A DNA stretch of 64,000 bases from an uncultured Mycoplasmatota bacterium (lineage in GTDB: Bacteria; Bacillota_I; Bacilli_A; RF39; UBA660). Each line of letters starts with the position of its first letter. Positions within the stretch are counted from its first letter, which is position 1. The notes below the pieces were generated by a model. It worked only from the letters and a program-made list of their open reading frames with translations. It was not told where the DNA came from and did not search any database. The translations under genes and the position numbers were made by a program. The stretch covers positions 13,678 through 77,677 of the forward strand of contig CAOJEH010000001.1 in assembly GCA_948434005.1 (NCBI GenBank), read 5' to 3'. This document shows positions 3,817-55,099 of the stretch, piece by piece.

Positions 3817-3884
3817 TTTATACCACCACTACTATTCTATACGAAATAATATATTTTAGCAAGGTAAAACAAAATTAAAAAATT

Positions 3885-4178
3885 CTAAGGAATTCGAAGA
3901 ATTATTTCTCCATCCTTAGAATAAGAATATTTTTCTCTTGCATATCTCGCAATATAATCAGGATCTTGTAATTTGTTAGCGTCAACTTGTAATGCAGCTT
4001 CTTTTTCTTTCAAATTAGAAAGTTTAGTTTTAAGTTCCTTTTTTTCTTGATATTTATCATATATTTCAACCCAGTATTTTCCTATTGTATATGTAGTACC
4101 AACAATAACAGCAATAGAAGTCAGTCCCAATAGAAAAAGACGTTTTACAGACTTTTTAGATTTTTTCCTTTTTGCCAT
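3885..4178 (-). CDS. divIC: Septum formation initiator, FtsB/DivIC family
   Basis: Short bitopic protein: basic N-terminus, one TM helix, coiled-coil LKTKLSNLKEKEAALQ, and DPDYIARYAREKY motif; lies after yabP-yabQ as in B. subtilis. Confidence 0.8.
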   Translation of the reverse strand: MAKRKKSKKSVKRLFLLGLTSIAVIVGTTYTIGKYWVEIYDKYQEKKELKTKLSNLKEKEAALQVDANKLQDPDYIARYAREKYSYSKDGEIILRIP

Positions 4179-5503: not shown

Positions 5504-6288
5504 CTAGGATACCCCACATACATAGTACCATTTGTAATAATACCGCCTATACCATCGGCCCCGTATTTAGTTTTTTCTATTAGTGGAATTAAATCTATAC
5601 TTTTATTCTTAGCAGAAAGCGCTATTGTAGATGCAATTATAGCAGGATCTAGAGCATGTATATTAATTCTTTTAGGGCTAGATGCAAAATTTGATCCAGC
5701 CTTTATTAATTCTTCATAATTTGATTGACATGCTCCTGAAATAACTATTAATTTGTTTTCATCCTTTTCATATTTTCTAGCAACTTTAACTGCATTAATA
5801 AAATTCTTTGTATTTTGATAATTATCTATATTATTAGGATCTTTTTTCTTTTTATAAAATGCATCATGACCAGTCACTACTAATATATCGGGATTATACT
5901 TACTAAGGTATTCATCTAAATATTTAGAAATATCTTCTTCTTTTAATGAAATGCCATAGGCTTTAACATTTAAATCCTTATAAAAACTCATACATCTATT
6001 TAAATATTCCTCATCTCCATCTATATGAAGAATTTTTCCAGGTAAATAAAAATATTCATCTCTATTTAAATCTAAGTCTTTAATATTATCATTTATTATT
6101 TTTCTATCTGATTTACTTACATTATATACATCTTCTTCTTTTCGTAAATCATCAATTACACTATCAGCATATAACCTCAAATCTACTCCCTTTAATAATA
6201 TAATATCATCATTGATATCAATTACTTTAAATAATATATCATTATTATATGAATTTCTTGTTACTAAATCGCCCACTTTTAAATTCAT
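5500..6288 (-). CDS. yabG: Sporulation-specific protease YabG (peptidase U57)
   Basis: Motifs shared with B. subtilis YabG: GDLVTRNSY, LHIDGDEEYL, VVTGHDA, GACQS, ANFASSP, NIHALDP. Confidence 0.88.
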   Translation of the reverse strand: MNLKVGDLVTRNSYNNDILFKVIDINDDIILLKGVDLRLYADSVIDDLRKEEDVYNVSKSDRKIINDNIKDLDLNRDEYFYLPGKILHIDGDEEYLNRCMSFYKDLNVKAYGISLKEEDISKYLDEYLSKYNPDILVVTGHDAFYKKKKDPNNIDNYQNTKNFINAVKVARKYEKDENKLIVISGACQSNYEELIKAGSNFASSPKRINIHALDPAIIASTIALSAKNKSIDLIPLIEKTKYGADGIGGIITNGTMYVGYPR

Positions 6289-6366
6289 TTAATCATCTCC
6301 ATCTAATTATATGAGATAATCTTTTATTTATGAAAAATACTACTAAAGATTTAGTAGTATTTAATA

Positions 6367-7860: not shown

Positions 7861-7870
7861 ATTACACCTC

Positions 7871-10800: not shown

Positions 10801-11701
10801 AATCTTCAATAGACCTATTCCATTCACAATACTTATATTTATAATTATCATCCCAACCTATAATTTGCATAGCATGATCAGTACCTAGTCCATATAAAAC
10901 ATAATTATTATCATAAATATTACGACCAGTATTAGTATTTGGACTAATTGTCATTACATACATACCACCATAGTTTTTTACCATATGTTTTATCATATTA
11001 TAATCAGATTCTGAACTAAGATGAAAAGGCATATGTTTAGCCTCATCTACTTCATATAATGAACTACTATAATTATAAATTTCACTTTTTTTCTTCATTG
11101 TCGTATCATAATAATTACCACTTTTTAATATCTTCTTATCCCAACTTGCATCTTTTGTTGCATAACCAGATGTCGCTACATGCATAACATAATAAAAGTT
11201 TCCACCTCGACCTAAACTTCTATTTGCATAAGCAAATTTAAAGTCAAAAATACCATCATTTGATGTGGCATAATCAAGTTGCCTTTCTGAAAAAATTTGA
11301 CTACTAGAAGAAACTGGTTGATTGTTAGTTATCGCTAGATATGTCTCCATTTGAGCATTTGTTGCAAAAGACCAGCACAAACCTAATGAACCCTGATTTT
11401 TAATTGGTGTCATATAATTTTTGCCATCAATATCTCTAAGATCAAATTTTGAAGGTAAGTTTTCATCTATTTGTTCTATAGCTTCTGGAGTAGAATCTAC
11501 AATTAAATCCGTTGGTATTACTTCCCTTTTTTCTTGTTCATAAGAGCTCATTGTCAAATAATCAACAAAATCCGGGTTTAAATATGCCTCATTTGGTTGT
11601 TTATTTTTTTCTGTCAAAATTATATTATCAGTTTCGGCATAATAAGCTTTAATGTAATTTTTAGCTTCTTTAGGTAAATAACTATAACTAGAAGTTTCCA
11701 T
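7871..11701 (-). CDS. 1276-aa multidomain protein: papain-like (C1) cysteine peptidase, GLUG-motif beta-helix region, Big_2 domain, Listeria-Bacteroides repeats, C-terminal type-I dockerin. No N-terminal signal peptide.
   Basis: C1 catalytic motifs NQGSLGLCWSFA (Cys), GTDHAMQIIGWDD (His), IKNSWG (Asn). GLUG-like repeats AAGLVANS, AGGIGGET, VGGLIGKT, AAGGVGQL. Big_2-like VYYSDNNDILEVDKNGNITAKAVGSANIIIV. Listeria-Bacteroides repeat GYYKFSGWNTKPDGTGKTYSEQQ. Dockerin GDINNDGLISITDISRLFRYI ... SDVNDDNRVTITDLSKLFAYI at the C-terminus. A 10-bp gap to the downstream cohesin gene suggests an operon. Confidence 0.75.
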   Translation of the reverse strand: METSSYSYLPKEAKNYIKAYYAETDNIILTEKNKQPNEAYLNPDFVDYLTMSSYEQEKREVIPTDLIVDSTPEAIEQIDENLPSKFDLRDIDGKNYMTPIKNQGSLGLCWSFATNAQMETYLAITNNQPVSSSSQIFSERQLDYATSNDGIFDFKFAYANRSLGRGGNFYYVMHVATSGYATKDASWDKKILKSGNYYDTTMKKKSEIYNYSSSLYEVDEAKHMPFHLSSESDYNMIKHMVKNYGGMYVMTISPNTNTGRNIYDNNYVLYGLGTDHAMQIIGWDDNYKYKYCEWNRSIEDCPASVIHENTEGSWIIKNSWGDTSAKKYLYLPYSLAVEPAVVTKMVSMADRTWDYQLDYTKLENVTVSGKEQKKIVFNAPIDSRMSKLKFFSNSTDRNVKVYYKTSNGRKLIDTVGIDLKGWYTVDLYDKNLERSDKCVFHIEDPDYLTPINISTPKLFLNSDGVASVTTSPVDYSTEVIVPSYDFTIESQVYGIPEGETLDYKIYDLNGKDISQYINSYSDNAVSGDFVIASMSVSNKLIPGEYIIEVYHNGEYLDETSLIIEAPYISLEGEGTIDNPYLIKSPSDLDLIRTSTSSSYKLSNDIDLTYDTQNENGIFYNSGTGWQSITNFKGTFDGDNHKITGLYSTRNGLFDSVTVSKVNDNNSIFSNLTLQNFNIVNSSNNNVAALVGTLEADSNVSNIIIDNVSITSSNISSEGKAAGLVANSNSFVPISFTNCYNNSEIYSKISGGIYGSLKIASVINSANEGIVNGNNIAGGIGGETTLATLDKVINTAKVDSQDIVGGLIGKTNSANITSFINYGDVTAEIFAAGGVGQLNNMTFDSSGNVNITGNLFVNSGYNTGNIGCLSCEGKEELVSSTGEKYTSHCSDELVCRDSSIAPLTDENINIENINYFKGTIAQNVLVKENVKKIDYIDAYDIENNFNWPNFENNWIIDNSFPTINNKKVVNKVSNIIPNISELTINLSHSDNYVIESTVEGNIFNKGVVYYSDNNDILEVDKNGNITAKAVGSANIIIVSISNGTKKILPVSVKVSKYNINYHSNTDEDNIITQSVTFNASDKLLENTFKNGYYKFSGWNTKPDGTGKTYSEQQEIINLINEDETIDLYAVWSIDGLIKTEVYGYDIENNLIYNIGVQTTVKEFIKNTSFNSNYHYSLYNSKNNLIEDTDIITTGSYIQMIDNNGENYKIYLSVRGDINNDGLISITDISRLFRYIVDDNYSIDLPNIKSSDVNDDNRVTITDLSKLFAYIMKNISKL

Positions 11702-13902: not shown

Positions 13903-14358
13903 CTATAAAACCTCTATATTATTTTTAGCTTGTCTCCTCTTTTTATTTATACATACCATAAATAAAATATTACTAATACATAAGCCATAAACCAATATTT
14001 TCATAAAAGCTATATAATCACTAAAATAAATGAAATTTATATTATAACCCATAACCCTATTTAAAATCATATTAGTATCACAAATTGCTCTAATTCCAAC
14101 TACTATAGTAGTAGAAAATACTAAGCAACAAGTTAAATTATAAAATAGATTACTATTAACACTTTTTTGACGAAATATAATATTTATAAAAAATATTATC
14201 AATAATATAGCATATGGTAAAAAGATATTTATAGATTCTATCATATCTTTACTTAACCTTTTATACATAGATAAAACTATATAAAAAGAAATAGCAAAAG
14301 CTCCTAAGAATAAAATATATCTTAAACCTAATAATATAACATTAATTATCTTTTTCAT
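13903..14358 (-). CDS. Polytopic membrane protein (4 TM), unknown function, last gene of the sipW cluster
   Basis: Hydrophobic 151 aa; 4-nt overlap with the upstream ORF. Confidence 0.5.
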   Translation of the reverse strand: MKKIINVILLGLRYILFLGAFAISFYIVLSMYKRLSKDMIESINIFLPYAILLIIFFINIIFRQKSVNSNLFYNLTCCLVFSTTIVVGIRAICDTNMILNRVMGYNINFIYFSDYIAFMKILVYGLCISNILFMVCINKKRRQAKNNIEVL

Positions 14359-15047
14359 ATATTTCCTCCTGCCATATTTTTATATAAAACTGATGTATCA
14401 TACATAAAATCAACTACGTTAACATAATCATACAAGATAGAATAATAACTATCTTTAAGTTGATCATAAATATTATCCTTTGTACTACGACTAGTGAAAT
14501 TATAACTACTATTATTCTTAATTATTTTTTCTATATAATCAGTTGAACCCTTTAGTCCATTTATATTATCTTCCATAAACGGTATAGTTGATTTATAAAC
14601 TGGCATACTACCAAATATAGAATTATCTTCTGTAGTCAAACCATATAATTGTTTAACTAAACATTCATTAGCAATATCTATTTTATAAAATTGTTGCATC
14701 TCATATACATCACTTATAGAAACAGTTTCTTTTTGTAAAATATTATCTAATTTAGAGTTACTTATTTTATCCATACAAATATTAAGTTTAGTTTGAAAAA
14801 CAGAAAGATTAGTATAGTTCTGATTTGTAATATTTAAATTTACTGAATTAATATTTTCATTTATTTTATTTATTTTTTCTTTTATTTCAGTATTTATTTG
14901 ATAATCACTATCTTGTTTATTGTATAAATCATTTACATCTTTATAATGATAAAGATTTAAAAACAATAGAAAAAAGGCAAAGCCAAAGACTAAACCAGAT
15001 ATTGTATAGGCCATTATATTTGAATATTCTACTAGTATCTTTTTCAT
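14355..15047 (-). CDS. N-terminally membrane-anchored Asn/Tyr-rich protein of unknown function in the sipW cluster
   Basis: Single N-terminal TM (YTISGLVFGFAFFLLFLNLY), then a polar 200-aa extracellular region. Position is analogous to tapA in tapA-sipW-tasA, but I see no sequence similarity. Confidence 0.45.
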   Translation of the reverse strand: MKKILVEYSNIMAYTISGLVFGFAFFLLFLNLYHYKDVNDLYNKQDSDYQINTEIKEKINKINENINSVNLNITNQNYTNLSVFQTKLNICMDKISNSKLDNILQKETVSISDVYEMQQFYKIDIANECLVKQLYGLTTEDNSIFGSMPVYKSTIPFMEDNINGLKGSTDYIEKIIKNNSSYNFTSRSTKDNIYDQLKDSYYSILYDYVNVVDFMYDTSVLYKNMAGGNI

Positions 15048-15056
15048 ATTTACCCT

Positions 15057-15590
15057 CTATTCTTTTATTGGTTCTACAGTTATATTATAACTATAATATT
15101 TATTCATCCAATCTGTTTCCTTAGATTTTTCATTTAACCATATTTTTAATGAATAACTATTAGTAGAATTTGTACTCATAGTTCTAGTATCCAATATATT
15201 ATTCTTAATATTAGACATAGTCCCTTTCTTAATAACCACACCATTTAGTTTTAGTTCATAATTTAAATAACTTCTTGATAAGGTATTCTCTCCTTTTTCT
15301 TTATCAATTATATCTTCTATAAGTAAATCATAAGTAGCGTTCTCCTCCTTAGTATTACTAATAGAAAATTCATAAGGTACTATAATATCTATATTATTAT
15401 CACTTATTGGTCCCAAATCTTTAAAATCATCTTTTGATACATCACTATCTGCTGATATTTCAAAATTATTGGCTATAAAATCATCTTTCTTTATTATTTT
15501 TGAAAATATAAATATTAATACTAAAAGTATTAGAATAATTATTACACCAATTAAAATATATAGTCCTTTCTTTCTTTTCATGTATATCAC
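15057..15590 (-). CDS. TasA-like secreted protein, paralogue 3 (SipW-cognate substrate candidate)
   Basis: N-terminal basic and hydrophobic signal (KKGLYILIGVIIILILLVLIFIF). Shares the C-terminal motif YSLKIWLNE...YSYNITVEP with the paralogues at 16524 and 17165 (YRLRIWIKE...YKLKVDVY; YRLRMWLGE...YTVKINVY). Confidence 0.55.
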   Translation of the reverse strand: MIYMKRKKGLYILIGVIIILILLVLIFIFSKIIKKDDFIANNFEISADSDVSKDDFKDLGPISDNNIDIIVPYEFSISNTKEENATYDLLIEDIIDKEKGENTLSRSYLNYELKLNGVVIKKGTMSNIKNNILDTRTMSTNSTNSYSLKIWLNEKSKETDWMNKYYSYNITVEPIKE

Positions 15591-15598
15591 TCCTATTC

Positions 15599-16447
15599 CT
15601 ATAATATTTCTATATCATCTTCAGTATCCTTACTATTTATAGAAGAGTTTTTTTCTTTATAGGCATTTATTTTATCTCTTAATTCTTCTTCTACATCTTC
15701 AGTATTATCTTCTTTTTTTGGAATATCTGAATCGCTTATAATTTCTATATTATCAGTATCTTCAGAATCTAAATTAGAATTAGAAACCTTCTCTTTGTTT
15801 GTAGGTAACCTTCTAGGATTAATTGCTTTAAACATTTTAATAATATCATAAATAACAACTCCCAAACAAGGTATTACAATTAAAACAACCCAACCAACAG
15901 CATTTGTAAGTGCCTGTTGTATATAACCAATTTTTGGAATTTTAAGCATAACTTTTCCATAAATATTACTAGCCCTTACTAAGGAAGAATCTTCGGTATT
16001 ATTATTATCTCCTTTTGTTCTAAAGTAAATTTCGCCAGTTTTAGATTTTTCAATTCCAACTATACGATGTGTAATAACAAGTCCAGAATATCTAGAATCG
16101 GTAGATAAAAAAGTTATTACATCATCAACTTCTAATTCTTCTGGTTCTGCCCTTTTTATAACAATAGCATCATATACATTTATTGTTGGTACCATACTAG
16201 GACTAATTATTATATAAGCTCCAAAAAGAGGTTGTTTATCAATTCCTTTTTTTGCATTTATTTGCTCATCAATAAAGTATAGTATAAATGCTATAGCAAC
16301 TAAAATAAGTATCATTAATATAGAATATAAGAATATTTTGGCAGCAAAGTGATATATTTTATATGCAAGTTGAAGTTTAGTCATACGTGGTTTTTTTTGT
16401 TTTTCTTGGTTACTTATCTGTTCTAATACTGCATCCACTTTTGCCAC
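15599..16447 (-). CDS. sipW: Signal peptidase I, ER/archaeal type (SipW-like), with an ~80-aa acidic C-terminal tail
   Basis: Catalytic Ser box IISPSMVPTI; His instead of Lys in ITHRIVGI; TKGDNNNTEDS, which is the GDNN..D motif of SEC11/SipW-type enzymes; single TM. The unusual D/E/S-rich C-terminal extension is read directly from the sequence. Confidence 0.8.
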   Translation of the reverse strand: MAKVDAVLEQISNQEKQKKPRMTKLQLAYKIYHFAAKIFLYSILMILILVAIAFILYFIDEQINAKKGIDKQPLFGAYIIISPSMVPTINVYDAIVIKRAEPEELEVDDVITFLSTDSRYSGLVITHRIVGIEKSKTGEIYFRTKGDNNNTEDSSLVRASNIYGKVMLKIPKIGYIQQALTNAVGWVVLIVIPCLGVVIYDIIKMFKAINPRRLPTNKEKVSNSNLDSEDTDNIEIISDSDIPKKEDNTEDVEEELRDKINAYKEKNSSINSKDTEDDIEIL

Positions 16448-16523
16448 CTCCCATTATTCTATGCTACTTATATAATAGCATGAAAATAAGAAAATTGCAC
16501 TAAAAAAGAAACAAGTTTGTTTC

Positions 16524-17138
16524 TTATTTTTTACTAAGCTCTGAATATACATCAACTTTTAATTTATAAGTCATAACTCTATCATATGAACAAGCATTTT
16601 CTTTTATCCATATTCTTAACCTATATTTATCTGTTATTGTAGCATTTTTTTCACTATTAACAGTACTTTTATATAATAACATACTATCTTTATTTACATA
16701 AGTATTTTCAAGATCTGTATCTTTTGGTATAAAGGTTTTAGGTTCTAATACTGATTTATATTTGCCTGCCATTTCTTTTTCTAAATATATATTTACACAA
16801 TTATTAGGAAGTCTATTATTATTTTTATAATCTGTTCTTCTAGCTCTTATTTCATAATCAATTGCGGCTTTACCATTGATGTTAGCCGATACGGTAAAAT
16901 CAAAATATTCTTTCTGTAATTTTCCTGCGGAATCTGACATTGGAACTGCATTATCAATTGCTATAACATTATCACTTTCAGTATATGTCATTGATATATT
17001 ACCAGTTGAAATTGTATTTTTTTTCATACCCTTACCAGTAAACATAAATATTGCATAGGAAATTCCAATTACTGCAACAAAAAGAATTGCAATACCTATT
17101 ATTGATAATAATATATTTCTTGAATCTGTATTTTGCAT
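16524..17138 (-). CDS. TasA-like secreted protein, paralogue 2. The ORF track starts at 17168; the likely true start is MQNTDS at 17138.
   Basis: Signal ILLSIIGIAILFVAVIGISYAIFMF with an A-x-F motif like TasA AAF; shares EYFDFTV and YRLRIWI motifs with the neighbouring paralogue. Confidence 0.6.
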   Translation of the reverse strand: MQNTDSRNILLSIIGIAILFVAVIGISYAIFMFTGKGMKKNTISTGNISMTYTESDNVIAIDNAVPMSDSAGKLQKEYFDFTVSANINGKAAIDYEIRARRTDYKNNNRLPNNCVNIYLEKEMAGKYKSVLEPKTFIPKDTDLENTYVNKDSMLLYKSTVNSEKNATITDKYRLRIWIKENACSYDRVMTYKLKVDVYSELSKK

Positions 17139-17164
17139 ATAACCTCCTCTATAAAAGAGTAAAA

Positions 17165-17803
17165 TCACTCTGTTTTTCCATAAACATTTATTTTTACTGT
17201 ATATGTTTTATTACCACCCACTGATGCATCTTCTCCTAGCCACATCCTAAGTCTATAATTATCTATTGTTTTAGTTACCTTTTCCTTTTTTATTTCTTTT
17301 TTTCCACGTTTTCTTACAACTCTCTTCAATACCATAGCGCCTTTTGGAGTTCCAATTTTTGTTTCTTTTGGAGATGGAATAAAGTTATTTGGTTTCATTA
17401 CTTTAGTATAAGTTCCACTTTTTTCTTGTTCTAAATACAATCTAATTTCATTATCAGGTATAGTAGATGCTTCATCTTTAATAGCTGCTATCTCATAAAT
17501 TGCTTTCATATTACCAACTAATTTTGTATTAACAATAAAGTCAAAATATTCATTTTCACCTAATTGAACCATACCTTTCTCATCACTAGTAGGTAATGCA
17601 TTTTCTATTGAAATACCATTTGTTTTTTCTAGATAATTCATTGTTATTTCTCCTGAATGAATAGTATTACTAATTCCACCCTCTGTTTTTATAAAAGCAG
17701 CAAACGAAAAACTTATTACTACTACTACTAATAGTGTTACTAGTAATAATGATATAAATATCTTTTTAGAATAATTCTTATCTAATTGTTCTGTTTCTTT
17801 CAT
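17165..17803 (-). CDS. TasA-like secreted protein, paralogue 1
   Basis: Signal KKIFISLLLVTLLVVVVISFSFAAFIK (AAF as in the TasA signal peptide region); motifs EYFDFIV, YRLRMWL and KINVY shared with paralogue 2. Confidence 0.6.
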   Translation of the reverse strand: MKETEQLDKNYSKKIFISLLLVTLLVVVVISFSFAAFIKTEGGISNTIHSGEITMNYLEKTNGISIENALPTSDEKGMVQLGENEYFDFIVNTKLVGNMKAIYEIAAIKDEASTIPDNEIRLYLEQEKSGTYTKVMKPNNFIPSPKETKIGTPKGAMVLKRVVRKRGKKEIKKEKVTKTIDNYRLRMWLGEDASVGGNKTYTVKINVYGKTE

Positions 17804-20494: not shown

Positions 20495-20760
20495 ATCTCC
20501 TTTTTATTGAGGTTAATATTAACTATAGTATATTATGAAAATAAAAAAATATTATAACATAAGGACGAATTACTCCGCGGTTCCACCTTATTTTATAATA
20601 TCAATTATACTCTCAAATAGTTAACGCCTATATACGATCATACCTACATATCGATATGATGGTTCAAAAGCCATATTTTATAAATTATCTATATCTACTT
20701 TCACCAACATAGACTCTCTTTAATAGATACTATTTATAAAACTCTTTCTCACAACCTCTA
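20495..20760 (-). ncRNA. T-box riboswitch leader of metG
   Basis: On the minus strand the conserved T-box sequence AAGGTGGAACCGCGG is present (plus-strand CCGCGGTTCCACCTT at 20575-20589). Stem I base AAAGAGAG (plus CTCTCTTT at 20714-20721) is followed by GGTGAAAGTAG. A candidate AUG specifier lies in AAAAUAUGGC. I could not fold the terminator confidently by eye. Confidence 0.5.
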
Positions 20761-20787
20761 ATTGAAGCTATAATATCATATATTTTT

Positions 20788-27497: not shown

Positions 27498-27812
27498 CTA
27501 TTTTTTAGTTAAATCTAAATCAGTATAATAAATAATTTCTTTATTTAATTTTTTTGCATATTCTATTTCACTTTTTGTACTACCTCCTATATAATTATCA
27601 ACATTAACAACCAAAATTGCATCTGATAATTTTATTTTTTCTTTATGCATCTTATCTAAAATATCCACTTCTTCATCAGTATAAGCATCTTTGTCAGGAT
27701 TAGTAGGATAAATTGGTGCAAGTACACAATTTTCTTGTAATTCCAACATTTCTGCCACTTCTATCATCTCATTTTTAAATCTTAAACTTCCACATATTGT
27801 TATAACTTTCAT
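27498..27812 (-). CDS. Hypothetical small protein, possibly a nucleoside 2-deoxyribosyltransferase-like (Rossmann-like) fold
   Basis: 104 aa; the only weak hints are an MKVITICGS...IGGSTKSEIEYAKKLNK pattern. Confidence 0.3.
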   Translation of the reverse strand: MKVITICGSLRFKNEMIEVAEMLELQENCVLAPIYPTNPDKDAYTDEEVDILDKMHKEKIKLSDAILVVNVDNYIGGSTKSEIEYAKKLNKEIIYYTDLDLTKK

Positions 27813-27824
27813 TTACTCCTCCTA

Positions 27825-28235
27825 TTATATTTGCTCTAATTCAGCTAATGATTTAGATTTTTTTATGGTCTTATCTGATACTTTAATCAACTTATTATTT
27901 ACTGCAACATAATGAATTATTTCTAGATTATTACAATTCATAGCTTTTCTTATCTCACTTTCAATATAATGAAGTTGAATACAATGGGAGGACTTATCCA
28001 CAGTAGCAAAAATAATTTTTTTAATATCTACCTTACAAATCATACCAATTATTTTTGTTACTACCATATTAAAATGTGTGCTTTCTAAACATACTTCATA
28101 TATATTTTTAGACATTTTTGTAAGTGCTTGATAAGCATTTGGTTGCATATTTTTTAAACAACTACCTACTATAACCATATCAGTATCAACATCATAACAA
28201 TTTGTTTTCATTAAACCTTTCATCATTACCTCCAT
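27825..28235 (-). CDS. Hypothetical Cys/His-containing protein
   Basis: 136 aa with several Cys (VIVGSC, EVC, MIC, SHC, NC) and no motif I can name. Confidence 0.35.
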   Translation of the reverse strand: MEVMMKGLMKTNCYDVDTDMVIVGSCLKNMQPNAYQALTKMSKNIYEVCLESTHFNMVVTKIIGMICKVDIKKIIFATVDKSSHCIQLHYIESEIRKAMNCNNLEIIHYVAVNNKLIKVSDKTIKKSKSLAELEQI

Positions 28236-28251
28236 ATTTATCGTTAATTTA

Positions 28252-28953
28252 TTAAAGATAATTTCTACTTTTTAAATACTTAAAAAGTATTGGTACCATT
28301 TTTTCTATATCTAACTTTGTATTATTAATAGCATACTTCAAAATATCAATTAAGGAAGTAGAATCATTTATATAACATAACTCTATATTTTCCTTAGAAA
28401 TAATATGATTAGATAAACAATGAAGATTCCATCTATCCATATCATTATTTTCTAAAGAAGAGTATTTTTTATCATAACCCATTAACTCTAAATGCCTTTT
28501 TTTATATTTTCTTGACTTTATTTCATCTATATCATCATAATTAAAATCAATTTTTTCTTTTAAATCTAATTTTAATAAAATAGATTCATCAAGAAGTTTA
28601 TCAAAAACTTTAAAAGCTCTTTTTTCATGTACTTTTGTTTTCTTTAAGACACCAAAATAGCAATCTGCAATGATTTGTGGAAACCATCTTTGTCTTAGAA
28701 AATTTGCACCTATTGTATAAATAAAAGGTATTCTTGGCATATAATAATATACATTTATCCAGCAATCAAATAATATTAAAAGATTGTCTAAACCTTCAAC
28801 AAAAAAGACTTTTTTTGTTTTTTCAATGTATTTAGCATGTTTTACGATTTTAGGAATTAGTCCTTTTTTTTCAATAGACTCTAAATTATAATTAGCTGTA
28901 AAATGGAAATAATTTGAAGTTATATCACTAGTAGTTAATTTATATTTTTTCAT
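28252..28953 (-). CDS. Hypothetical protein
   Basis: 233-aa ORF with reasonable codon usage in a tight gene array; no recognisable domain. Confidence 0.4.
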   Translation of the reverse strand: MKKYKLTTSDITSNYFHFTANYNLESIEKKGLIPKIVKHAKYIEKTKKVFFVEGLDNLLILFDCWINVYYYMPRIPFIYTIGANFLRQRWFPQIIADCYFGVLKKTKVHEKRAFKVFDKLLDESILLKLDLKEKIDFNYDDIDEIKSRKYKKRHLELMGYDKKYSSLENNDMDRWNLHCLSNHIISKENIELCYINDSTSLIDILKYAINNTKLDIEKMVPILFKYLKSRNYL

Positions 28954-35513: not shown

Positions 35514-35527
35514 TACTTTCACTCCAA

Positions 35528-35615
35528 AAATAAAAGTGCACATAAGTGTTGATTGTTAAAGCTGCTATCTTCCGATCCTGACTTGTTTCCAATACACTTA
35601 TTGCACCAATAACAT
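35528..35615 (-). ncRNA. ffs: Small (4.5S-type) signal recognition particle RNA
   Basis: The minus-strand transcript contains the domain IV consensus GUCAGGAUCGGAAGAUAGCAGC (plus-strand GCTGCTATCTTCCGATCCTGAC, 35561-35582). It is flanked by a long imperfect helix: 5' GGUGCAAUAAGUGUAUUGG pairs with 3' CAAUCAACACUUAUGUGCAC. It ends in a U-run that abuts the tadA RBS. Synteny with tadA-dnaX matches B. subtilis scr. Confidence 0.65.
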
Positions 35616-40187: not shown

Positions 40188-41300
40188 TTATTGCCTTCTT
40201 TCTATAATTCCATTCTTTATTTCATATATAAAAGCATCACTAGTATACTTAGATTTTATACTTTTTAAATCTGTCGTAGTAATAATACTTTGAATATCAA
40301 CATTTATATATTCTAATAGCCTATTTCTTTTTACTATATCTAATTCACTAAAAATATCATCTAATAACAATACAGGCTTTGTATTTCTATATTCTTCAAA
40401 TATATCTATTTCTGATAATTTAAATGCTAAAACTGCTACTTTTTGTTGACCTTGAGAACCAAAAAATTTTAAATTTTTATCCTGTAATGAAAATATAAAA
40501 TCATCCCTATGAGGACCATATAATGTCATTCCATAGTTTAATTCTTTTTTATATTCACTACTAAATTTTTCTTTTAGAATACTATAAATATTATCTGAAG
40601 AAAAATTATCTATTTCAATATTTGGTTCATATATAATTTTTAATGAGTCCTCTCCTGTTATATCTTTATAGATTTTATCTATTTTTTGGTTAATAAAATC
40701 TAAATATTTTTTTCTCTCCTCGTATATTATTATAGCTTTTTCTATCAATTTTTCTGTAATAACATCTAAATATTTTTTATCAGCTATAGATGACGTTAAT
40801 AATAGTTTTAAATATTCATTTCTTATTTTTAAAATCTTATTATATTCATTGTATGTATTTAAATATTTATTAGATATTTGAGATAATTCCATATTTATTA
40901 GATTTCTTCTAACACTTGGTGATCCTTTAATTATTTCTAAATCTTCAGGTGTAAAAACAATAATATTTAAATTAGAAATATACTCACTTATTTTTTTTAT
41001 ATCTTTCTTATTAATCTTAAGAGTTTTACTACCTTCTGATATTGATACCTCTAAATCATTAATTAACTTATTATTCCTAACTTTTCCTTTGATTAAAGCC
41101 TTTTTCTTATTAAAGGAAATTAAGTTAGGCTCTATTCCATTTCTATAAGTTTTTGTTAAAGCAAGTACACATATACTTTCCAATATATTTGTTTTTCCTT
41201 GTGCATTTTGTCCTATAAAAATATTCATTTTAGTATTTAAAGGTATATCTAGTTGAGAATAATTTCTAAAATTTTTCAATTTTATATTCTTAAGTATCAT
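40188..41300 (-). CDS. recF: DNA replication and repair protein RecF. The ORF track begins at a TTG at 41333; the likely start is ATG 41298-41300 (MILKNIKLKNFRNY).
   Basis: Walker A GQNAQGKTNILE; SMC-like signature and Walker B LLLDDIFSELD. Confidence 0.93.
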   Translation of the reverse strand: MILKNIKLKNFRNYSQLDIPLNTKMNIFIGQNAQGKTNILESICVLALTKTYRNGIEPNLISFNKKKALIKGKVRNNKLINDLEVSISEGSKTLKINKKDIKKISEYISNLNIIVFTPEDLEIIKGSPSVRRNLINMELSQISNKYLNTYNEYNKILKIRNEYLKLLLTSSIADKKYLDVITEKLIEKAIIIYEERKKYLDFINQKIDKIYKDITGEDSLKIIYEPNIEIDNFSSDNIYSILKEKFSSEYKKELNYGMTLYGPHRDDFIFSLQDKNLKFFGSQGQQKVAVLAFKLSEIDIFEEYRNTKPVLLLDDIFSELDIVKRNRLLEYINVDIQSIITTTDLKSIKSKYTSDAFIYEIKNGIIERRQ

Positions 41301-41423
41301 CTTTGATATAATAACTCTCCATATTATCACCAAAACCCTATCAAAGTATTCCTATACATACAAGACTATTATATCATAAATGACGTGTTTTTGCACTAAA
41401 AAAAGTCATAAGTGACTTTTTCT

Positions 41424-41858
41424 TTATCTATCTCTCATTATTAAATCTAATCTAGAAGCTCTTAATATTTGATTTTCTATAGTTCTTCTAGATACAGGTA
41501 TTAATATTGATATATCATTATTGAATATTATATTAGTTGAATTATAATCTGCAGCTTCTATTTTTTTAATATTTTTTAAAGATATCCAACAACAATCCTC
41601 TGCAGATGGTGAATTAGTTGGAAAGAATATTATATTTTTACTATTTTCAACTATAATTGGAACTTTATAATTTATATCAAGTATTGCTTTAGTTCCCTCT
41701 TTTCTTCCTTCGTATGATGACCCAAAATATTTACAACTATAATCCATTATTTCATATGGTGTATTATTTATAACATATTCTTTGCTATCTTCTAATACCT
41801 TACTCTTCTCTTCTTTAGGTAATATTGCTAAAGTACCTTCATTAATTTCATAATTCAT
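41424..41858 (-). CDS. comK: ComK-family competence transcription factor homologue (short, 144 aa)
   Basis: Alignable with B. subtilis ComK over most of its length: EINEGTLAILPKEE / YEVNGATIAVLPEE; DYSCKYFGSSYEGRKEGT / DRSCRFFGSSYAGRKAGT; VPIIVENSKNIIFFPTNS / PPIMVDPSNQIFLFPTLS; CCWISLKNIK / CGWISHVHVK; IENQILRASRL / FENQVYRTAWL. It lacks the ~45 C-terminal residues of ComK. Confidence 0.7.
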   Translation of the reverse strand: MNYEINEGTLAILPKEEKSKVLEDSKEYVINNTPYEIMDYSCKYFGSSYEGRKEGTKAILDINYKVPIIVENSKNIIFFPTNSPSAEDCCWISLKNIKKIEAADYNSTNIIFNNDISILIPVSRRTIENQILRASRLDLIMRDR

Positions 41859-41957
41859 AAATTTTCCCCCTTTGAAAACAGATTATCCCGTTTTCAGGAG
41901 GTATAATAACACACTATATAGTCGTTTTTTGTGGAATTTTGTCATACATCACTTATT

Positions 41958-43088
41958 TTAATATGTTCTTATAGGAAGAACTAATTGTGTTAATGTTTCA
42001 TCCTCACTAGATTTCACAAGAATAGGTTTTACTTCCCCTACAAAATGTAACTCTACATTTTCTGTATTAAAAGATTTTAAAGCTTCCATCATATATTTAG
42101 CACTAAATGATATTTTTATATTTTCTTCATTATTCTTTTCTATATTCATTTTTTCTTCTACTCTACCTATTTCTTGTGAAGAAGATTTTAATGTTAATAA
42201 ATTACCATCTGTTTCTAAAGTAACTATATTTTTTTCCTTATCACTAGTAAGAATACTAGCCCTATCTATAACACCGTAAATATCACTTAATTTTGTATTT
42301 ATTATAAGAAATTCATCTTTTGGCATTAAATTAGATGTATTTGGATAAGTACCATTTATTAATCTAGATTGAAATTTAAAATTTTTATACATAAACAATA
42401 TTTTATTATTAGAAATATGCAATTCAATATTTGCCTTTTCATCATCATCTAATATTCTTACAAATTCTAAGATATTATGACTAGGTATAACTATATTATA
42501 GTTATCTTCTCCTTTTATATCTAAAGTTACAACTTTTCTAGCTAAACGATATGAATCAGTAGAATTACATTCTAATACATTTCCAACAATATTAAAATTA
42601 ATTCCAGTTAATACAGGTTTAGTTTCCTCGTTAGATGATGCAAAAGCTGTTTGATTAACAATATCTTTAAATACTTTATTATTTATAATTATTTTTTTCT
42701 TTGATTCTTCTAAATTAATATTAGGATATTCTTCTTCATCTATTCCATTTAAATTAAATTCACTATTTTCTGTATAAATAAGAACTTTTAATTCATCTAT
42801 AACTTCTATATTAATATATTTATCTGGTAGTTTCCTTACAATATCTAGTATATATTTTCCTTGAACAATAATACTACCTTCTTTTTCAACTTTAAAATCC
42901 TCATCTTTTAAAGAATGAATTACAGTTTGAATTGTAATATCATTATCACTAGCAGTTAGTGTAAGTTTATTCTTATTTAATTCAAATTTTATACCTGATA
43001 ATACAGGAATTAAATTTTTAGTTGAAATAGCCTTCGATACCTTATTTATTCCTTCTAATAAAATGTCTTTTTTTATTGTTAATTTCAT
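41958..43088 (-). CDS. dnaN: DNA polymerase III beta sliding clamp
   Basis: 376 aa; three-domain clamp pattern; C-terminal LVLPIRTY; directly downstream of dnaA. Confidence 0.95.
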   Translation of the reverse strand: MKLTIKKDILLEGINKVSKAISTKNLIPVLSGIKFELNKNKLTLTASDNDITIQTVIHSLKDEDFKVEKEGSIIVQGKYILDIVRKLPDKYINIEVIDELKVLIYTENSEFNLNGIDEEEYPNINLEESKKKIIINNKVFKDIVNQTAFASSNEETKPVLTGINFNIVGNVLECNSTDSYRLARKVVTLDIKGEDNYNIVIPSHNILEFVRILDDDEKANIELHISNNKILFMYKNFKFQSRLINGTYPNTSNLMPKDEFLIINTKLSDIYGVIDRASILTSDKEKNIVTLETDGNLLTLKSSSQEIGRVEEKMNIEKNNEENIKISFSAKYMMEALKSFNTENVELHFVGEVKPILVKSSEDETLTQLVLPIRTY

Positions 43089-43224
43089 ATATATTCCTTC
43101 TTTCTTATTATTTAATTTATATTTTTTTATATTATTGCTGTGGATTTTGTTAATAACTCGATTTTTTAGTTAAAATTAATAGATTTATAATAAATTTAGT
43201 TGTGGAAAAATCATAGTTTAAATT
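43089..43224. promoter_or_regulatory. dnaA-dnaN intergenic AT-rich region with DnaA-box-like 9-mers (candidate DNA-unwinding part of a bipartite oriC)
   Basis: TGTGGATTT at 43139-43147 and TGTGGAAAA at 43201-43209, embedded in >85% AT sequence with A/T tracts. Confidence 0.5.
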
Positions 43225-44619
43225 TTATTTATTAACAACACCCTCTCCTATGTCTTTTTTTAATTTATCAATTATTTTTGCTAAATCTGGGTTGATTTTT
43301 ATTTCTTGATCTATTTTTTCAACTGAATGCATCACTGTAGAATGATCTTTTCCGCCAAATTCAGTCCCTATTTTAGGAAATGATTCACTGGTCATATTTC
43401 TACATAAATACATTGCAATTTGTCTAGGAAATGAAATATTAGAACTTCTCTTTTTACTTCTAATATCTTCTACTGTTATTTGAAAATATTCAGAAACAAT
43501 CTTTTGAATTCTATGAACATCATTTTTTTCAGATATTCCTTTACTTATAAAATCTTTTAAAGCTTCTATCGCTAAATCAAGATTTATATCTACTCCACCC
43601 ATTATGGTAGAATAAGCAATTAATCTAGTAATAGAACCTTCTAGCTGTCTAACATCTGTACCAATATTAGAAGCAATATATTCTATTACATCTTCAGGTA
43701 TTTCTTTTTCAAAATTACCTGCTGCTATTTTCTTTCTTATTATTTCTGTTCTAAGAGAAAAATCAGGTGGAAAAACATTAACTGTTAATCCCCAACAAAA
43801 CCTGGTTCTTAAACGATCTTCTAATAATTTTAAATCATCAGGAGATCTATCAGATGAAATAATAATTTGCTTACTATCATTATATAATGTATTAAAGGTG
43901 TGAAAAAATTCTTGTTGAGTTTGTGTTGCTCCTCCTAAAAACTGAATATCATCAATTATTAAAACATCAACATTTCTATATTTATTTTTAAAGAAATCAA
44001 CATAATTAAAGTTTGTTCCTTTAGCATCTCTTTTATTTATACCAATAAAGTCTTGAATAAATTGATCGCTTGTTACATATAAAACTTTTCTATTACTATT
44101 AGCCATAATATAATTACCAATAGCATGCATTAAATGGGTTTTACCAAGTCCACTATTTCCATATATAAATAATGGATTATACATATTGCCAGGATTCTCA
44201 GCGACTGATAAAGCTGCAGCATGAGCAAATTTATTACTATTTCCAACAATAAAATTATCAAAAGAATATTTATTCTTCAAATTAGACTGAAATGAATTAG
44301 GAGGGACACCAGAATTATTATCCTCAATCATATCATTATCTATTAAAACTCTTTCTACTGTTTCTTTTTTTATTTCACTTTCTAATATAAATTCTAATTC
44401 AAAATTAGTACCCGTAATATTATTTAATTTTTCTATAATTAGGGAAGAATATTTATCAGCTAAATGTTTTTTATGTATTTGCATAGGAACAACAATAAAT
44501 GCTTTGCCATCTTTTAATTCATGTAGTTTTGTATCATTAAACCATGTATCAAAAGCTAGTGCAGATAAATCATCCTTTATTTGTGATAAAAAGTTGTTCC
44601 ATAATACATCCACATTCAT
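43225..44619 (-). CDS. dnaA: Chromosomal replication initiator DnaA. The ORF track begins at a TTG at 44637; the likely start is ATG 44617-44619 (MNVDVLWNNFL), with GGGGAG upstream.
   Basis: Walker A GNSGLGKTHLMHA; Walker B LIIDDIQF; sensor and Arg finger; C-terminal DNA-binding signature (RQIAMYLCRNMTSESFPKIGTEFGGKDHSTVMHS). Confidence 0.97.
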   Translation of the reverse strand: MNVDVLWNNFLSQIKDDLSALAFDTWFNDTKLHELKDGKAFIVVPMQIHKKHLADKYSSLIIEKLNNITGTNFELEFILESEIKKETVERVLIDNDMIEDNNSGVPPNSFQSNLKNKYSFDNFIVGNSNKFAHAAALSVAENPGNMYNPLFIYGNSGLGKTHLMHAIGNYIMANSNRKVLYVTSDQFIQDFIGINKRDAKGTNFNYVDFFKNKYRNVDVLIIDDIQFLGGATQTQQEFFHTFNTLYNDSKQIIISSDRSPDDLKLLEDRLRTRFCWGLTVNVFPPDFSLRTEIIRKKIAAGNFEKEIPEDVIEYIASNIGTDVRQLEGSITRLIAYSTIMGGVDINLDLAIEALKDFISKGISEKNDVHRIQKIVSEYFQITVEDIRSKKRSSNISFPRQIAMYLCRNMTSESFPKIGTEFGGKDHSTVMHSVEKIDQEIKINPDLAKIIDKLKKDIGEGVVNK

Positions 44620-44639: not shown

Positions 44640-44930
44640 AAAGTAATTAAGTTTATTCTACATTAAATTGTGTAAAAAATAAATAGAAAAACAAAATTTT
44701 CTTTTTTCCACAAAAAAATAACAAAATTATCAACAATCAAAATCAAGTGAAAGGGTCTTTTAAAAAGTTTTCCACATTTTCCACAAATTTTATTAATCAA
44801 CTGTTATTTTTATTTTCCACATACTTGTGGATTTTGTGAAAACAAAAAAAACTAAAAATATAGTATATTTATTTGACAAAACATCATATTTACTATTATA
44901 ATAATGTAGATTTATGTCTGGAGGTGGAAT
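44640..44930. promoter_or_regulatory. oriC: oriC DnaA-box cluster between dnaA and rpmH, including the rpmH sigma-A promoter
   Basis: TTTTCCACA (1 mismatch to TTATCCACA) at 44704-44712, 44768-44776, 44777-44785 (direct tandem) and 44814-44822; inverted TGTGGATTT at 44826-44834. Consensus promoter TTGACA (44873-44878), 18-nt spacer, TATAAT (44897-44902). GGAGGTGG RBS before rpmH. Confidence 0.75.
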
Positions 44931-47038: not shown

Positions 47039-47794
47039 ATGTATGGTGCAACTTTATATGCGATAAAACAACAATTTGAAGAAAGACAAAAAATAAGGGA
47101 AGCAATGAAAGGTGAAAAAGAAGAAAAAGAAAAAATAGAATTAGCAAAACAAATATTAACAGTTATTAAGAATAATTTAGAAAATTGTGCACAAGAAGGT
47201 AAAAATTTAATAACAAAGATTTCTTATGAAGATGAGGAAACTAGAGAAAAAATAAATAAATGCTTTAATAAATTAATAGAATTAGGTTGGGAAGAAGGAA
47301 TAAGCATTTATATGAGTTATGATAAATTAAAACCAGAATATTATGCAACGATAGAAAATATATTTTTTGATTATGATATGTATAGATTTATTAGTAATAA
47401 TAGAAAACAATTCCTTGATGCCAATGAAAAAAATTATATAGATTTAGAAAAAAAATACTTTGAACAATTATCAGAAGGAACAGATATTTCAACTTTATTA
47501 TGTTCTATAGAACAAGTAGATTCTATCGATTCAATAGAAAAAATAGATGAAAAAAATCAAATTTATACTAAAGCTTTAGCTAATGCGGCATATAGAATAG
47601 GTATGGAAAATGATCCTGATTTAATAGAACTTGGTTTTTCTATAGAACCAACATATTATGATATATTCGGTTTTAGAATAGATAGTAATAAATATGAAAA
47701 TTATATTCAAATAATGCACAGATACTATAAAGAAAAAACACCAAAAGAAAGTCAAAGCTTGCAACAAAAGGTAAAGAATCAAAAAGAAGGTTAA
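47039..47794 (+). CDS. Hypothetical K/E-rich cytoplasmic protein inserted between jag and mnmE
   Basis: 251 aa; good RBS AAAAGGAGATG; no recognisable domain; a bidirectional terminator (AAAAAATAGCAATTGCTATTTTTT, ~47797-47820) follows. Confidence 0.45.
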   Translation: MYGATLYAIKQQFEERQKIREAMKGEKEEKEKIELAKQILTVIKNNLENCAQEGKNLITKISYEDEETREKINKCFNKLIELGWEEGISIYMSYDKLKPEYYATIENIFFDYDMYRFISNNRKQFLDANEKNYIDLEKKYFEQLSEGTDISTLLCSIEQVDSIDSIEKIDEKNQIYTKALANAAYRIGMENDPDLIELGFSIEPTYYDIFGFRIDSNKYENYIQIMHRYYKEKTPKESQSLQQKVKNQKEG

Positions 47795-47810
47795 AAAAAT
47801 AGCGCAATTG

Positions 47811-48164
47811 CTATTTTTTCTTTCCTATACCATAAGTTACGCCTGCTTTGTAATCTTCAGTAGCTTCTTTAATTATATCATCAATAAATTCATTTTCTAG
47901 ATTATTAGAACTATCGCTAGAACTATTTTTTTGAAAAGAAGATAAACCATAATTCCCCATATCTTCCATAGACTCTCTAATAACATCATCAACAAATGAT
48001 TTATGAATTTGAGATTTCTCAGGTAGAATAGGATTAATACTAGATTTATGAATTTGAGTATTATTCATAAATGATCTTCTTCTTAAAATAGTATTTTTAG
48101 TATTATCTGTCATTATTGATATATTTGTAATACTTTTTATTCCCATAAAACATTCCCCCTCCAA
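47811..48164 (-). CDS. Hypothetical small protein (convergent to the previous gene)
   Basis: 117 aa, with an internal duplication (...IHKSSINPILPEKSQIHKS...; DDVIRESMEDMGNYG / DDIIKEATEDYKAG); no known motif. Confidence 0.35.
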   Translation of the reverse strand: MEGECFMGIKSITNISIMTDNTKNTILRRRSFMNNTQIHKSSINPILPEKSQIHKSFVDDVIRESMEDMGNYGLSSFQKNSSSDSSNNLENEFIDDIIKEATEDYKAGVTYGIGKKK

Positions 48165-53485: not shown

Positions 53486-55099
53486 ATGCAGCAAGGAGAA
53501 GAAGTAGTATATCTATATTTGGATGATATTATTCCTAATAGGTTTCAACCTAGAGAAGTATTTGATGAAAGACCTTTAAAAGAATTAGCTGTTTCTATAA
53601 AAGAACATGGAGTAATACAACCAATTATAGTAAGAAAAGTAAATGATAAATATGAAATAATAGCTGGTGAACGTAGATATAAAGCTTCTGCTTTAGCTGG
53701 ATTAACTAAGATACCTGCAATTATTAGAGATTTAGATGATAAAGAAACTTCTAAAGTAGCATTGTTAGAAAATTTACAAAGAAAAAATTTGAATCCATTA
53801 GAAGAAGCTAAAACATATCAAAAAATATTAGAAATAGATGAAATGACCCAAGAAGAGTTAGCAAAAACAATGGGAAAAAGTCAATCAGCAGTATCAAATA
53901 AGATAAGACTTCTATCATTATCTGAAGAGGTTCAACAAGCGTTATTAAAAGAAGAAATATCAGAAAGACATGCAAGAGCATTATTAAATATAGATGATAA
54001 AGAAGAACAAAACAAATTATTAAAAGAAATTATAGATAATAAGATGACAGTAAGACAATTAGAAGCAAAAATTAAAGGAGAAACTGTTTCAAATCAATCA
54101 ATAAACGAAGTATCATCTGAAATTACACCAAATATAGCTATTCCAGAAAATAGCGAAGATATAGGTTCTCAAACCAACTTCTTATCAAGTAGCCCATTAG
54201 TACCAAATTTTGGAGAAAATGAATCAGTAAATCAAAATAATCCAATGGCTTCAATTTTTAATAATATAGAGCAAAAAGAAGAACCATTAATAGTGAATAC
54301 TAATACTGAACCAAATTCTATGATGAATCAGTCAGAAGAAGATAAGGAGCCTTTAATAACAATGCCTAATGAAAATAATATAAATCAATCTGATGATTCA
54401 CAATCTAGTGAACCATTAATAATGATGTCAACAAATTCTAATGAATCATCAAATAATAGCAACGATAATAGTAATACTGAGAATAATAAATTTATAAATT
54501 TCGGAGAAATAGATGATGATGAAGATGATGAACCTGCAGATGAAAAGTTTTACGAAGATACTATTAATGATAGTCCTAGCATTTCATTTGGAGCAGGGCC
54601 AATATCAGCTAATAATGCAATTGACTTAGATGATTTAAAACAAAATACCAAAGATATTAATATCAAAGATGAGAACGCACCAGGCGCAGATTTAGATAGT
54701 CTATTAAGAATTAATAATAATGATTTATCAATTAATAATTCTAATACAGAAGAAAACGATAGTTTTAAGTTTTTTTCTCCAGCTGCAGAAGCAATAAAAG
54801 AAAGTGAAAATAATGAAAAACCAAAAAATAGCGAAGACTACTTTAAAGCTCCAGACTTGATGGGGATAGATTTACCAGGTGAAGTTCCTACATATAATAC
54901 AAATAATGTTCCATTAGCAAGTAATATAGATACTAAATCTATAGAAACAGAATCAAAACAAAATAGCTTAGAAAATGCTATAAATATTATAAATAATTCT
55001 ATAAAGGAAATAGAACAATCAGGCATTAAAGTAGAAAAGGATGAAATGAATTTAAATAATTCTTATCAAGTAATAATCAAATTAGAAAAAGACAACTAA
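53486..55099 (+). CDS. noc: Noc/ParB-family protein with a long low-complexity internal region (positional Noc orthologue)
   Basis: N-terminal ParB box IPNRFQPREVFDE...GVIQPIIVR...EIIAGERRYKAS...ALLENLQRKNL; HTH QEELAKTMGKSQSAVSNKIRLL. C-terminus LENAINIINNSIKEIEQSGIKVEKDEMNLNNSYQVIIKLEK aligns with the B. subtilis Noc C-terminus ...[33 protein letters not shown]. Between them lie ~320 aa of N/S/E/D-rich sequence with three E/K/S-EPLI repeats. Confidence 0.8.
   Translation: MQQGEEVVYLYLDDIIPNRFQPREVFDERPLKELAVSIKEHGVIQPIIVRKVNDKYEIIAGERRYKASALAGLTKIPAIIRDLDDKETSKVALLENLQRKNLNPLEEAKTYQKILEIDEMTQEELAKTMGKSQSAVSNKIRLLSLSEEVQQALLKEEISERHARALLNIDDKEEQNKLLKEIIDNKMTVRQLEAKIKGETVSNQSINEVSSEITPNIAIPENSEDIGSQTNFLSSSPLVPNFGENESVNQNNPMASIFNNIEQKEEPLIVNTNTEPNSMMNQSEEDKEPLITMPNENNINQSDDSQSSEPLIMMSTNSNESSNNSNDNSNTENNKFINFGEIDDDEDDEPADEKFYEDTINDSPSISFGAGPISANNAIDLDDLKQNTKDINIKDENAPGADLDSLLRINNNDLSINNSNTEENDSFKFFSPAAEAIKESENNEKPKNSEDYFKAPDLMGIDLPGEVPTYNTNNVPLASNIDTKSIETESKQNSLENAINIINNSIKEIEQSGIKVEKDEMNLNNSYQVIIKLEKDN

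Follow-up and report, generated by a model that had tools for sequence, protein, structure and literature searches.

A short-form comK gene conserved between dnaN and recF in uncultured Bacilli, with a candidate Spo0A-controlled promoter

Results

A comK-family gene occupies the dnaN-recF slot

We analysed a 64,000-nucleotide stretch of contig CAOJEH010000001.1 from an uncultured bacterium (GenBank assembly GCA_948434005.1, positions 13,678 to 77,677; hereafter the window; ~25% G+C), in which a gene for a short member of the ComK regulator family lies between dnaN and recF. The comK-family gene (41424..41858, minus strand) runs from an ATG start to a TAA stop and encodes a 144-amino-acid (aa) protein with a full ComK domain and without the C-terminal tail. 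Its upstream neighbour is dnaN (41958..43088, minus strand; Pfam DNA_pol3_beta) and its downstream neighbour is recF (40188..41300, minus strand), which has its own extended -10 element, TGATATAAT, at 41368-41376, and a conserved leader. These genes form part of a same-strand run of dnaA (43225-44619, minus strand), dnaN, the 144-codon open reading frame (ORF), recF, gyrB and gyrA. The sign of the GC skew flips at ~44-45 kb of the window, and DnaA boxes of the form TTTTCCACA are clustered at 44704-44821, in the rpmH-dnaA gap, with another at 43201-43209, in the dnaA-dnaN gap. The skew and the box clusters place the replication origin, oriC, 1.3-3 kb from comK. In Bacillus, the dnaN-recF slot holds yaaA/rlbA. 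We found neither an S4-domain yaaA/rlbA gene nor a remB gene in the dnaN-gyrB interval of the window. The original prediction, made from this sequence, had placed a ComK homologue in the slot, co-oriented with dnaA and dnaN and in the place of the S4-domain gene, and it was right on both counts.

Assignment of the product to the ComK family is borne out by its match to the Pfam ComK profile (PF06338), with an E-value of 2.3e-47 and a score of 161 bits (gathering cutoff 22.3) over profile positions 3-150 of 152. The outcome named in the original prediction as refuting it, absence of a significant ComK profile match, clearly does not hold. NCBIfam gave no match, and a PDB sequence search returned no relative. 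As had also been predicted, the protein can be aligned across all conserved blocks of the family: we observed the SC-x-Y-[FY]-G Cys, K-x-P-I, F-F-P-T and C-x-W blocks (C42, G51, K65, P67, I68, P80, C89, W91) and, in a 108-sequence alignment, the invariant C42, P67 and P80 and the near-invariant G51, R52, K65, C89 and W91. B. subtilis ComK, which belongs to the same Pfam family over the whole domain, shares all the conserved blocks and the two conserved cysteines. The AlphaFold model of the window protein (predicted local distance difference test score, pLDDT, of 97.1) has a LytTR-like beta fold, with two additional helices (residues 34-60) and a long C-terminal helix (residues 124-143) relative to LytTR. 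The window ComK thus shares its modelled fold with LytTR domains (AgrA, ComE, 3d6w), but it has no receiver domain, and its sequence scores under the Pfam threshold for LytTR (PF04397; threshold 22.6 bits), with a match of 16.1 bits (E=0.013) that is confined to residues 90-127.

The short ComK is not a decaying paralogue

The predicted absence of ~45 C-terminal residues relative to B. subtilis-type ComK agrees with our alignments. The window protein stops where the Pfam domain closes; long, Bacillus-like ComKs of 192 aa align with it end to end and then run on for the missing stretch. A B. subtilis ComK sequence served only to pick these Bacillus-like long forms and is no part of the evidence. 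The shorter length is the point in favour of a truncated, decaying and functionless paralogue, as the original prediction had suggested the gene might be. To place the protein in its family, we scored it against ~15 billion proteins clustered at 50% identity, with one representative for each cluster, and obtained 1228 relatives at E<=0.001. Among the best 150 of these 1228, lengths were bimodal, with 79 proteins of 140-159 aa and 37 of 180-209 aa, which makes short proteins the most frequent length class in this set (79/150). Relative to near relatives, the ratio of nonsynonymous to synonymous substitution rates (dN/dS) was 0.08-0.15 for comK, 0.09-0.15 for dnaN and 0.18-0.26 for recF; comK is under purifying selection, at a level like that of dnaN. 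The reading frame is intact across ~100 deeply diverged loci, the promoter, Shine-Dalgarno sequence and terminator described below are all conserved, and the structure is predicted with high confidence. With a complete Pfam domain and all the invariant residues also in place, decay retains next to no probability, and we regard it as refuted by the domain, selection, conservation and structure data. The window comK is a real, intact member of a known regulator family, in a short variant and at an unusual, conserved place.

The dnaN-comK-recF order is deeply conserved

We compared the dnaN-recF interval across two sets of relatives. The first comprised 21 loci from species-representative genomes, nearly all of them uncultured 'Bacilli' or 'Tenericutes' metagenome-assembled genomes from rabbit, mouse, goat and human gut, although L013 was deposited as Muribaculaceae and L021 as Lachnospiraceae. 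The second comprised 80 metagenome loci from a scan with the clade alignment. The order dnaA-dnaN-comK-recF-gyrB-gyrA was kept in 20/20 clade species-representative genomes as ComK identity fell from 88% to 47%, and comK was flanked by dnaN, recF or both in 75/80 metagenome loci, in which identity reached down to ~50% for DnaA, ~45% for DnaN and ~40% for RecF, and G+C content ranged from 19% to 32%. Overall, the position was kept in 95/100 loci (20 genomes and 80 metagenome loci). The original prediction had set the gene against the rarity of ComK in Clostridia, a framing that is irrelevant here: the host belongs to a low-GC lineage of Bacilli, and the related records are gut genomes of uncultured Bacilli and 'Tenericutes'.

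In five of the 80 metagenome loci (L063, L069, L070, L075 and L086), comK is placed elsewhere; in L075, for example, a short comK (5995-6453) lies between a DedA-like gene with rmuC and ligA-pcrA. TTCGACA-like boxes and a leader hairpin, described below, still accompany the relocated gene in at least four of the five (L063, L070, L075 and L086). In L021, a Lachnospiraceae homologue with 30% identity, both the dnaN-recF context and the phased boxes are absent. We also note that the dnaN-comK spacer of L006 (5186-6000) is 815 bp long and by eye seems to hold an extra ORF of ~230 codons, with the box, -10 and hairpin unit still directly upstream of comK.

We found no description in the literature of comK between dnaN and recF; the position is undescribed yet deeply conserved. 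The best explanation is that the ancestor of the lineage gained comK in the dnaN-recF slot and that the gene has been retained there since, the lineage being a large, uncultured and very low-GC group of Bacilli, probably RF39 and its relatives.

Phased TTCGACA boxes precede an extended -10 element upstream of comK

A two-hexamer promoter scan detected no standard promoter upstream of comK in the window. We identified an extended -10 element, TGTTATTAT, at 41903..41911 (minus strand), with no -35 hexamer at 17 bp. When the loci were aligned on this element (TGnTAnnnT), the strict motif was present in 60/88 unique comK upstream regions. Ahead of it in the window are three direct repeats with a 10-bp period (41920..41946, minus strand): TATGACA at 41940-41946, TTCCACA at 41930-41936 and AACGACT at 41920-41926, the proximal box ending 8 nt ahead of the TG of the extended -10. 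These are degenerate copies of TTCGACA, each of them 2/7 positions off the lineage consensus. Across the lineage, the architecture consists of two to four TTCGACA repeats with A/T-rich 3-bp spacers, 8 nt, TGnTAnnnT, a stem-loop, a Shine-Dalgarno sequence and the ATG. A position-weight matrix built on 88 unique loci has TTCGACAAAWTTCGACA as its consensus for two boxes.

The geometry of this unit varies little. The spacer between box and -10 was 8 nt in 45/50 scorable loci, and the repeat period was 10 bp in 64/65. Pairs of boxes with at most one mismatch each and exactly 10 bp apart occurred in 37.5% of the 88 unique upstream regions, as compared to 0% of shuffles. Across ~1 Mb of loci, ~58/70 tandem pairs lay just upstream of comK and most of the others were DnaA boxes in oriC; in the 64-kb window, the sole matches of at least 11 bits to the two-box matrix were two overlapping ones at 41917-41946. 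We considered whether the repeats are themselves DnaA boxes, and rejected this possibility: upstream of dnaA and in the dnaA-dnaN gaps of the same loci, TTCCACA occurred 94 times and TTCGACA twice, a preference that is reversed in the dnaN-comK spacers, and the repeats follow comK to non-origin sites.

As a separate observation, a TTCGACA box phased at 10 bp with a DnaA-type box lies upstream of dnaA in four loci (L055 at 3076, L056 at 496, L058 at 4026 and L017 at 3119). These boxes resemble the Spo0A-binding "0A boxes" described in B. subtilis oriC.

A leader hairpin and a terminator bracket the comK transcription unit

The comK Shine-Dalgarno sequence, GGGGG (41866..41870, minus strand), lies 7 nt before the ATG, and GGGGG or GGAGG is found at the same place in nearly all related loci. 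A stem-loop spans 41866..41901 (minus strand) of the 5' untranslated region (5'-UTR), with a core in which TGAAAAC (41890-41896) pairs with GTTTTCA (41873-41879). A hairpin directly upstream of the ribosome-binding site had been predicted; it exists, at coordinates ~6 nt away from those originally given. In the window, the stem extends further, with a 5' CCUCCU pairing with the GGGGG of the Shine-Dalgarno sequence (minimum free energy, MFE, -17 kcal/mol; z=-3.98), an extension that is found in some relatives and not in others. Single-sequence folds gave the same hairpin in 16/17 clade leaders, and explicit pair counting on a 14-sequence alignment gave 94% of cells paired; in one compensatory change G-C replaces A-U, and several A-to-G changes yield G-U wobbles, which keep the pairing on the sense strand only. 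RNAalifold predicted no structure on a MAFFT alignment of the 17 comK leaders, owing to misalignment of the A/U-rich arms in distant loci. Many leaders of the more distant lineages form a hairpin at this position whose sequence is unrelated. No match to Rfam was found in the comK or recF leaders at the gathering threshold or at E<=10.

The hairpin was the sole terminator-like match in our scan, but we rejected it as a terminator since the terminator-like pairing is not conserved and no U-tract follows. A palindromic operator in the DNA is less likely, given that the G-U wobbles are confined to the sense strand and that the distant hairpins are of unrelated sequence. We read the hairpin as a 5'-UTR stem-loop that would stabilise the mRNA, limit translation initiation, or both.

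Downstream of the gene is an intrinsic terminator (41398..41423, minus strand) with an A-tract, an 11-bp stem and a U-tract (MFE -9.3 kcal/mol, z=-2.4), and relatives have equivalent hairpins with different stem sequences. A dnaN terminator is present in many related loci, between dnaN and the comK boxes. The original prediction had noted that comK is co-oriented with the dnaA operon. The gene is not just a member of that operon: comK comes with a promoter and a terminator of its own, and recF with another promoter.

The comK promoter matches the layout of tandem Spo0A sites

TTCGACA is the reverse complement of the 0A box, TGTCGAA, which also occurs in tandem in the abrB and spoIIG promoters. 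Promoters that depend on a response regulator usually have phased boxes in the place of the -35, followed by an extended -10. The 0A box is common to Bacillus and Clostridioides (PMC3485338), and two 0A boxes 3 bp apart are protected by dimers of phosphorylated Spo0A, Spo0A~P (PMC2731898). We infer control of comK by Spo0A~P because the sequence and spacing of the boxes match tandem Spo0A~P sites. There is a direct precedent in the B. subtilis comK promoter, where Spo0A~P binds Spo0A-type boxes directly, and both activates and represses, opening and closing the competence window (PMC3297582). The comK promoter of this lineage has the 7-mer and the 3-bp spacer in common with the phage phi29/Nf A2c promoter and B. 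subtilis PcomK, and likewise has several phased boxes that adjoin the core promoter (PMC2731898, PMC3485338, PMC3297582). The regulation could take either sign, because 0A boxes that overlap the core promoter can also repress, as at phi29/Nf A2c (PMC2731898).

We propose the following mechanism. Spo0A~P, building up at the end of growth, would switch comK transcription on, or off at high levels, by way of tandem TTCGACA boxes, 3 bp apart, that would take the place of the -35 ahead of the extended -10. The window stem-loop would sequester the Shine-Dalgarno sequence, and so damp translation or stabilise the mRNA. ComK would then act on a DNA-uptake and recombination regulon, as in Bacillus, its family membership being what suggests the competence role. 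We give this explanation as a whole, of a functional short ComK in its own regulatory unit, switched by Spo0A~P and acting on a DNA-uptake and recombination regulon, a probability of roughly 0.55.

The window contains the sporulation-specific genes yabG, yabP, yabQ, spoVT, spoVG and bofA, as well as femAB, and no spoIIE was found between divIC and tilS (window 2500-4178, minus strand), its position in Bacillus. Members of the order RF39 are predicted spore-formers that have spoVG and are generally without spoIIE (PMC10868615). The gene pattern of the window fits this published marker pattern, and the host is probably a member of RF39.

Several observations weigh against the proposed explanation. 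We found no spo0A, no late competence gene (comG, comE, comF, dprA or ssbB) and no second Spo0A-type promoter in the 64-kb window or the flanks of the loci. The comK boxes are candidate sites by sequence; the three in the window are degenerate, and the middle one, TTCCACA, is the local DnaA-box core. The proximal box, at about -30 to -24, could serve in repression instead of activation. In the window, the dnaN-comK gap is without a terminator, which would allow read-through from dnaA-dnaN. No canonical K-box (paired A4-N5-T4) is present in 41859-41957 or in any other promoter of the window, the only matches being inside the ksgA and recR coding regions. As for the hairpin, covariation within the close clade is modest, and in the wider lineage it is not universal (z<-2 in 24/84 leaders).

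Alternatively, the TTCGACA repeats could be sites of ComK itself, acting by positive autoregulation as at B. subtilis comK, or of another response regulator that, like PhoB or ComE, takes over the role of the -35. The modelled fold of ComK is LytTR-like, and the LytTR regulators ComE and AgrA activate -35-less, extended -10 promoters via direct repeats. Moreover, the boxes always travel with comK, non-origin contexts included, and the absence of any other copy of the site in ~1 Mb fits a dedicated autoregulatory site. However, known ComK sites are A4-N5-T4 dyads, the repeat period of LytTR sites is ~21 bp rather than 10, and the Spo0A site is an exact match for the 7-mer, for the A/T bases that flank it and for the 3-bp spacing (PMC3485338, PMC2731898). 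In addition, the motif remains constant as ComK identity drops to 47%, which is more easily explained by a highly conserved binder such as Spo0A. We therefore consider binding by ComK, or by a regulator other than Spo0A, to be possible but unlikely, and retain Spo0A~P as the preferred candidate.

The short form may differ in activity from long ComK

A further point against the proposed explanation is that the short form may not be an activator, and could instead be a repressor or modulator like ComK2 of B. cereus or S. aureus. The window ComK is without the ~45-residue C-terminal tail of B. subtilis ComK, which is needed for activation (PMC3128618, citing Susanna 2006). B. subtilis ComK minus its last 25 residues keeps DNA binding and loses activation of comG (PMC3128618). 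The short ComK2 of B. cereus decreases comG expression (PMC3128618), and that of S. aureus represses competence (PMC12491500). The ComK2 proteins resemble the window ComK in being shortened at the C-terminus, but they lack 22 residues, as compared to ~45, and they are second copies beside a long ComK1 (PMC3128618). By contrast, in this lineage it is the short form that is conserved at the locus, where it is seemingly the sole ComK. The short form also makes up the majority of the closest family representatives; a family-wide loss of activation is unlikely. Furthermore, a LytTR-like domain alone can activate transcription in other systems. On balance, we think it doubtful that the short ComK is a repressor or modulator, and favour a functional regulator of the DNA-uptake programme.

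The tail of B. subtilis ComK includes an F-x-x-x-P segment implicated in targeting by MecA/ClpCP. The short ComK probably escapes MecA/ClpCP control. No mecA was found in the 64-kb window.

A conserved 12-mer marks the recF transcript start

The conserved place of comK could also mean that its function is local, with ComK regulating the adjacent recF-gyrB-gyrA or acting at the origin rather than on genome-wide competence. Adjacency in 95/100 loci is consistent with this possibility, as is a 12-mer, GTAYAGGWRTAY, at the recF transcript start, directly downstream of comK. Of 105 loci, 72 have exactly one copy of the 12-mer (window 41346-41357), without exception on the + strand of the comK-recF spacer, and no further copy is present in ~1 Mb of loci or in the window. 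The 12-mer lies ~10 nt downstream of TGnTATAAT (41368-41376). It is conserved in sequence without covariation and has no Rfam match (recF leader 41340-41376, minus strand; L001-L105), and may be a transcription-start operator or a 5' RNA protein-binding site. However, ComK binding to the 12-mer is hypothetical; the 12-mer is without the repeat structure typical of ComK or LytTR sites, and the comK promoter architecture is kept when comK adjoins ligA/pcrA. Few regions of bacterial genomes resist rearrangement as strongly as the dnaA-gyrA cluster, whose frozen synteny suffices to account for the adjacency. We judge a local function to be improbable, and continue to favour a genome-wide competence role.

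The recF leader also contains a 10-codon upstream ORF (MESYYIKDDT-stop; 41290-41322, minus strand), which follows a strong, conserved Shine-Dalgarno sequence, AGGTGAT, and runs across the recF start codon (41298-41300) in a different frame. Members of the close clade share this arrangement but differ in the peptide sequence, a pattern that points to translational coupling of recF.

Other features of the window

We noted several further features of the window. Between tatD and ksgA (13903-17803, minus strand) are six consecutive ORFs with no Pfam match at E<=1e-5. One of these (15599-16447) appears by eye to encode a SipW-type signal peptidase (motif SPSMxPT), two others (16524-17168 and 17165-17803) encode paralogous secreted proteins with N-terminal anchors, and the block resembles a TasA/SipW-like secretion cassette. 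At 6370-11701 (minus strand) is a gene for a 1276-aa protein with a papain-family protease domain, Big_2 and a C-terminal dockerin, which neighbours one for a 497-aa protein with cadherin-like domains; a dockerin is unexpected in gut Bacilli with reduced genomes. An unusually long, 537-aa ParB/Noc-like protein is encoded at 53486-55096 (plus strand), upstream of a regular soj-spo0J pair, with ParB_N and HTH_ParB confined to its first ~200 residues.

No Pfam match was found for three consecutive ORFs (233, 136 and 104 aa) at 27501-28953 (minus strand), from rsmI to a Ppx/GppA-like gene, or for two ORFs (251 aa, plus strand; 117 aa, minus strand) at 47039-48164, between jag and mnmE, the latter two being conserved in same-species contigs (L022-L025). 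Two RNA elements matched Rfam at the gathering threshold and are ordinary: a T-box leader upstream of metG (20558-20761, minus strand) and a small signal recognition particle RNA between tadA and gyrA (35525-35614, minus strand).

Discussion

The comK gene described here shares its protein family with B. subtilis comK and differs from it in regulation and place. The B. subtilis comK promoter has K-boxes and is subject to positive autoregulation, whereas the window comK promoter has only phased 0A-type boxes and an extended -10; B. subtilis comK is far from the origin, whereas the window gene lies between dnaN and recF. In its location, comK is more like comCDE of S. pneumoniae, a competence regulator of another family that is likewise kept next to oriC across its lineage, and whose origin-proximal gene dosage induces competence under replication stress (PMC5034851).

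By analogy with comCDE, a dosage switch for comK would be conceivable, but coupling of comK to origin gene dosage is speculation, and frozen synteny of the stable dnaA-gyrA cluster explains the conservation equally well. An extended version of this idea, which we think has little chance of being correct, is that Spo0A~P and origin copy number, as a reflection of replication stress, would jointly set ComK levels, and that ComK would activate both DNA uptake and recF-gyrBA, the latter via GTAYAGGWRTAY. If this were true, replication status, DNA scavenging and repair, and the sporulation decision would be linked in RF39-like gut Bacilli with reduced genomes. The conserved origin-adjacent comK offers a second, independent case in which to ask whether dosage underlies the placement of competence regulators near oriC.

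Short-form proteins make up the majority of ComKs in metagenomes, and as a class they are essentially uncharacterised. The rigid geometry of the comK promoter provides a concrete candidate binding site. RF39 and related groups are uncultured bacteria that are abundant in the gut and have reduced genomes, and to our knowledge nothing is known of gene exchange in them. An intact ComK under selection suggests that these bacteria have a regulated DNA-uptake or recombination programme tied to the master regulator of sporulation, as indicated by the deeply conserved, seemingly Spo0A-controlled promoter. Such a programme would be relevant to horizontal gene transfer in the gut and to the scavenging of nucleotides there.

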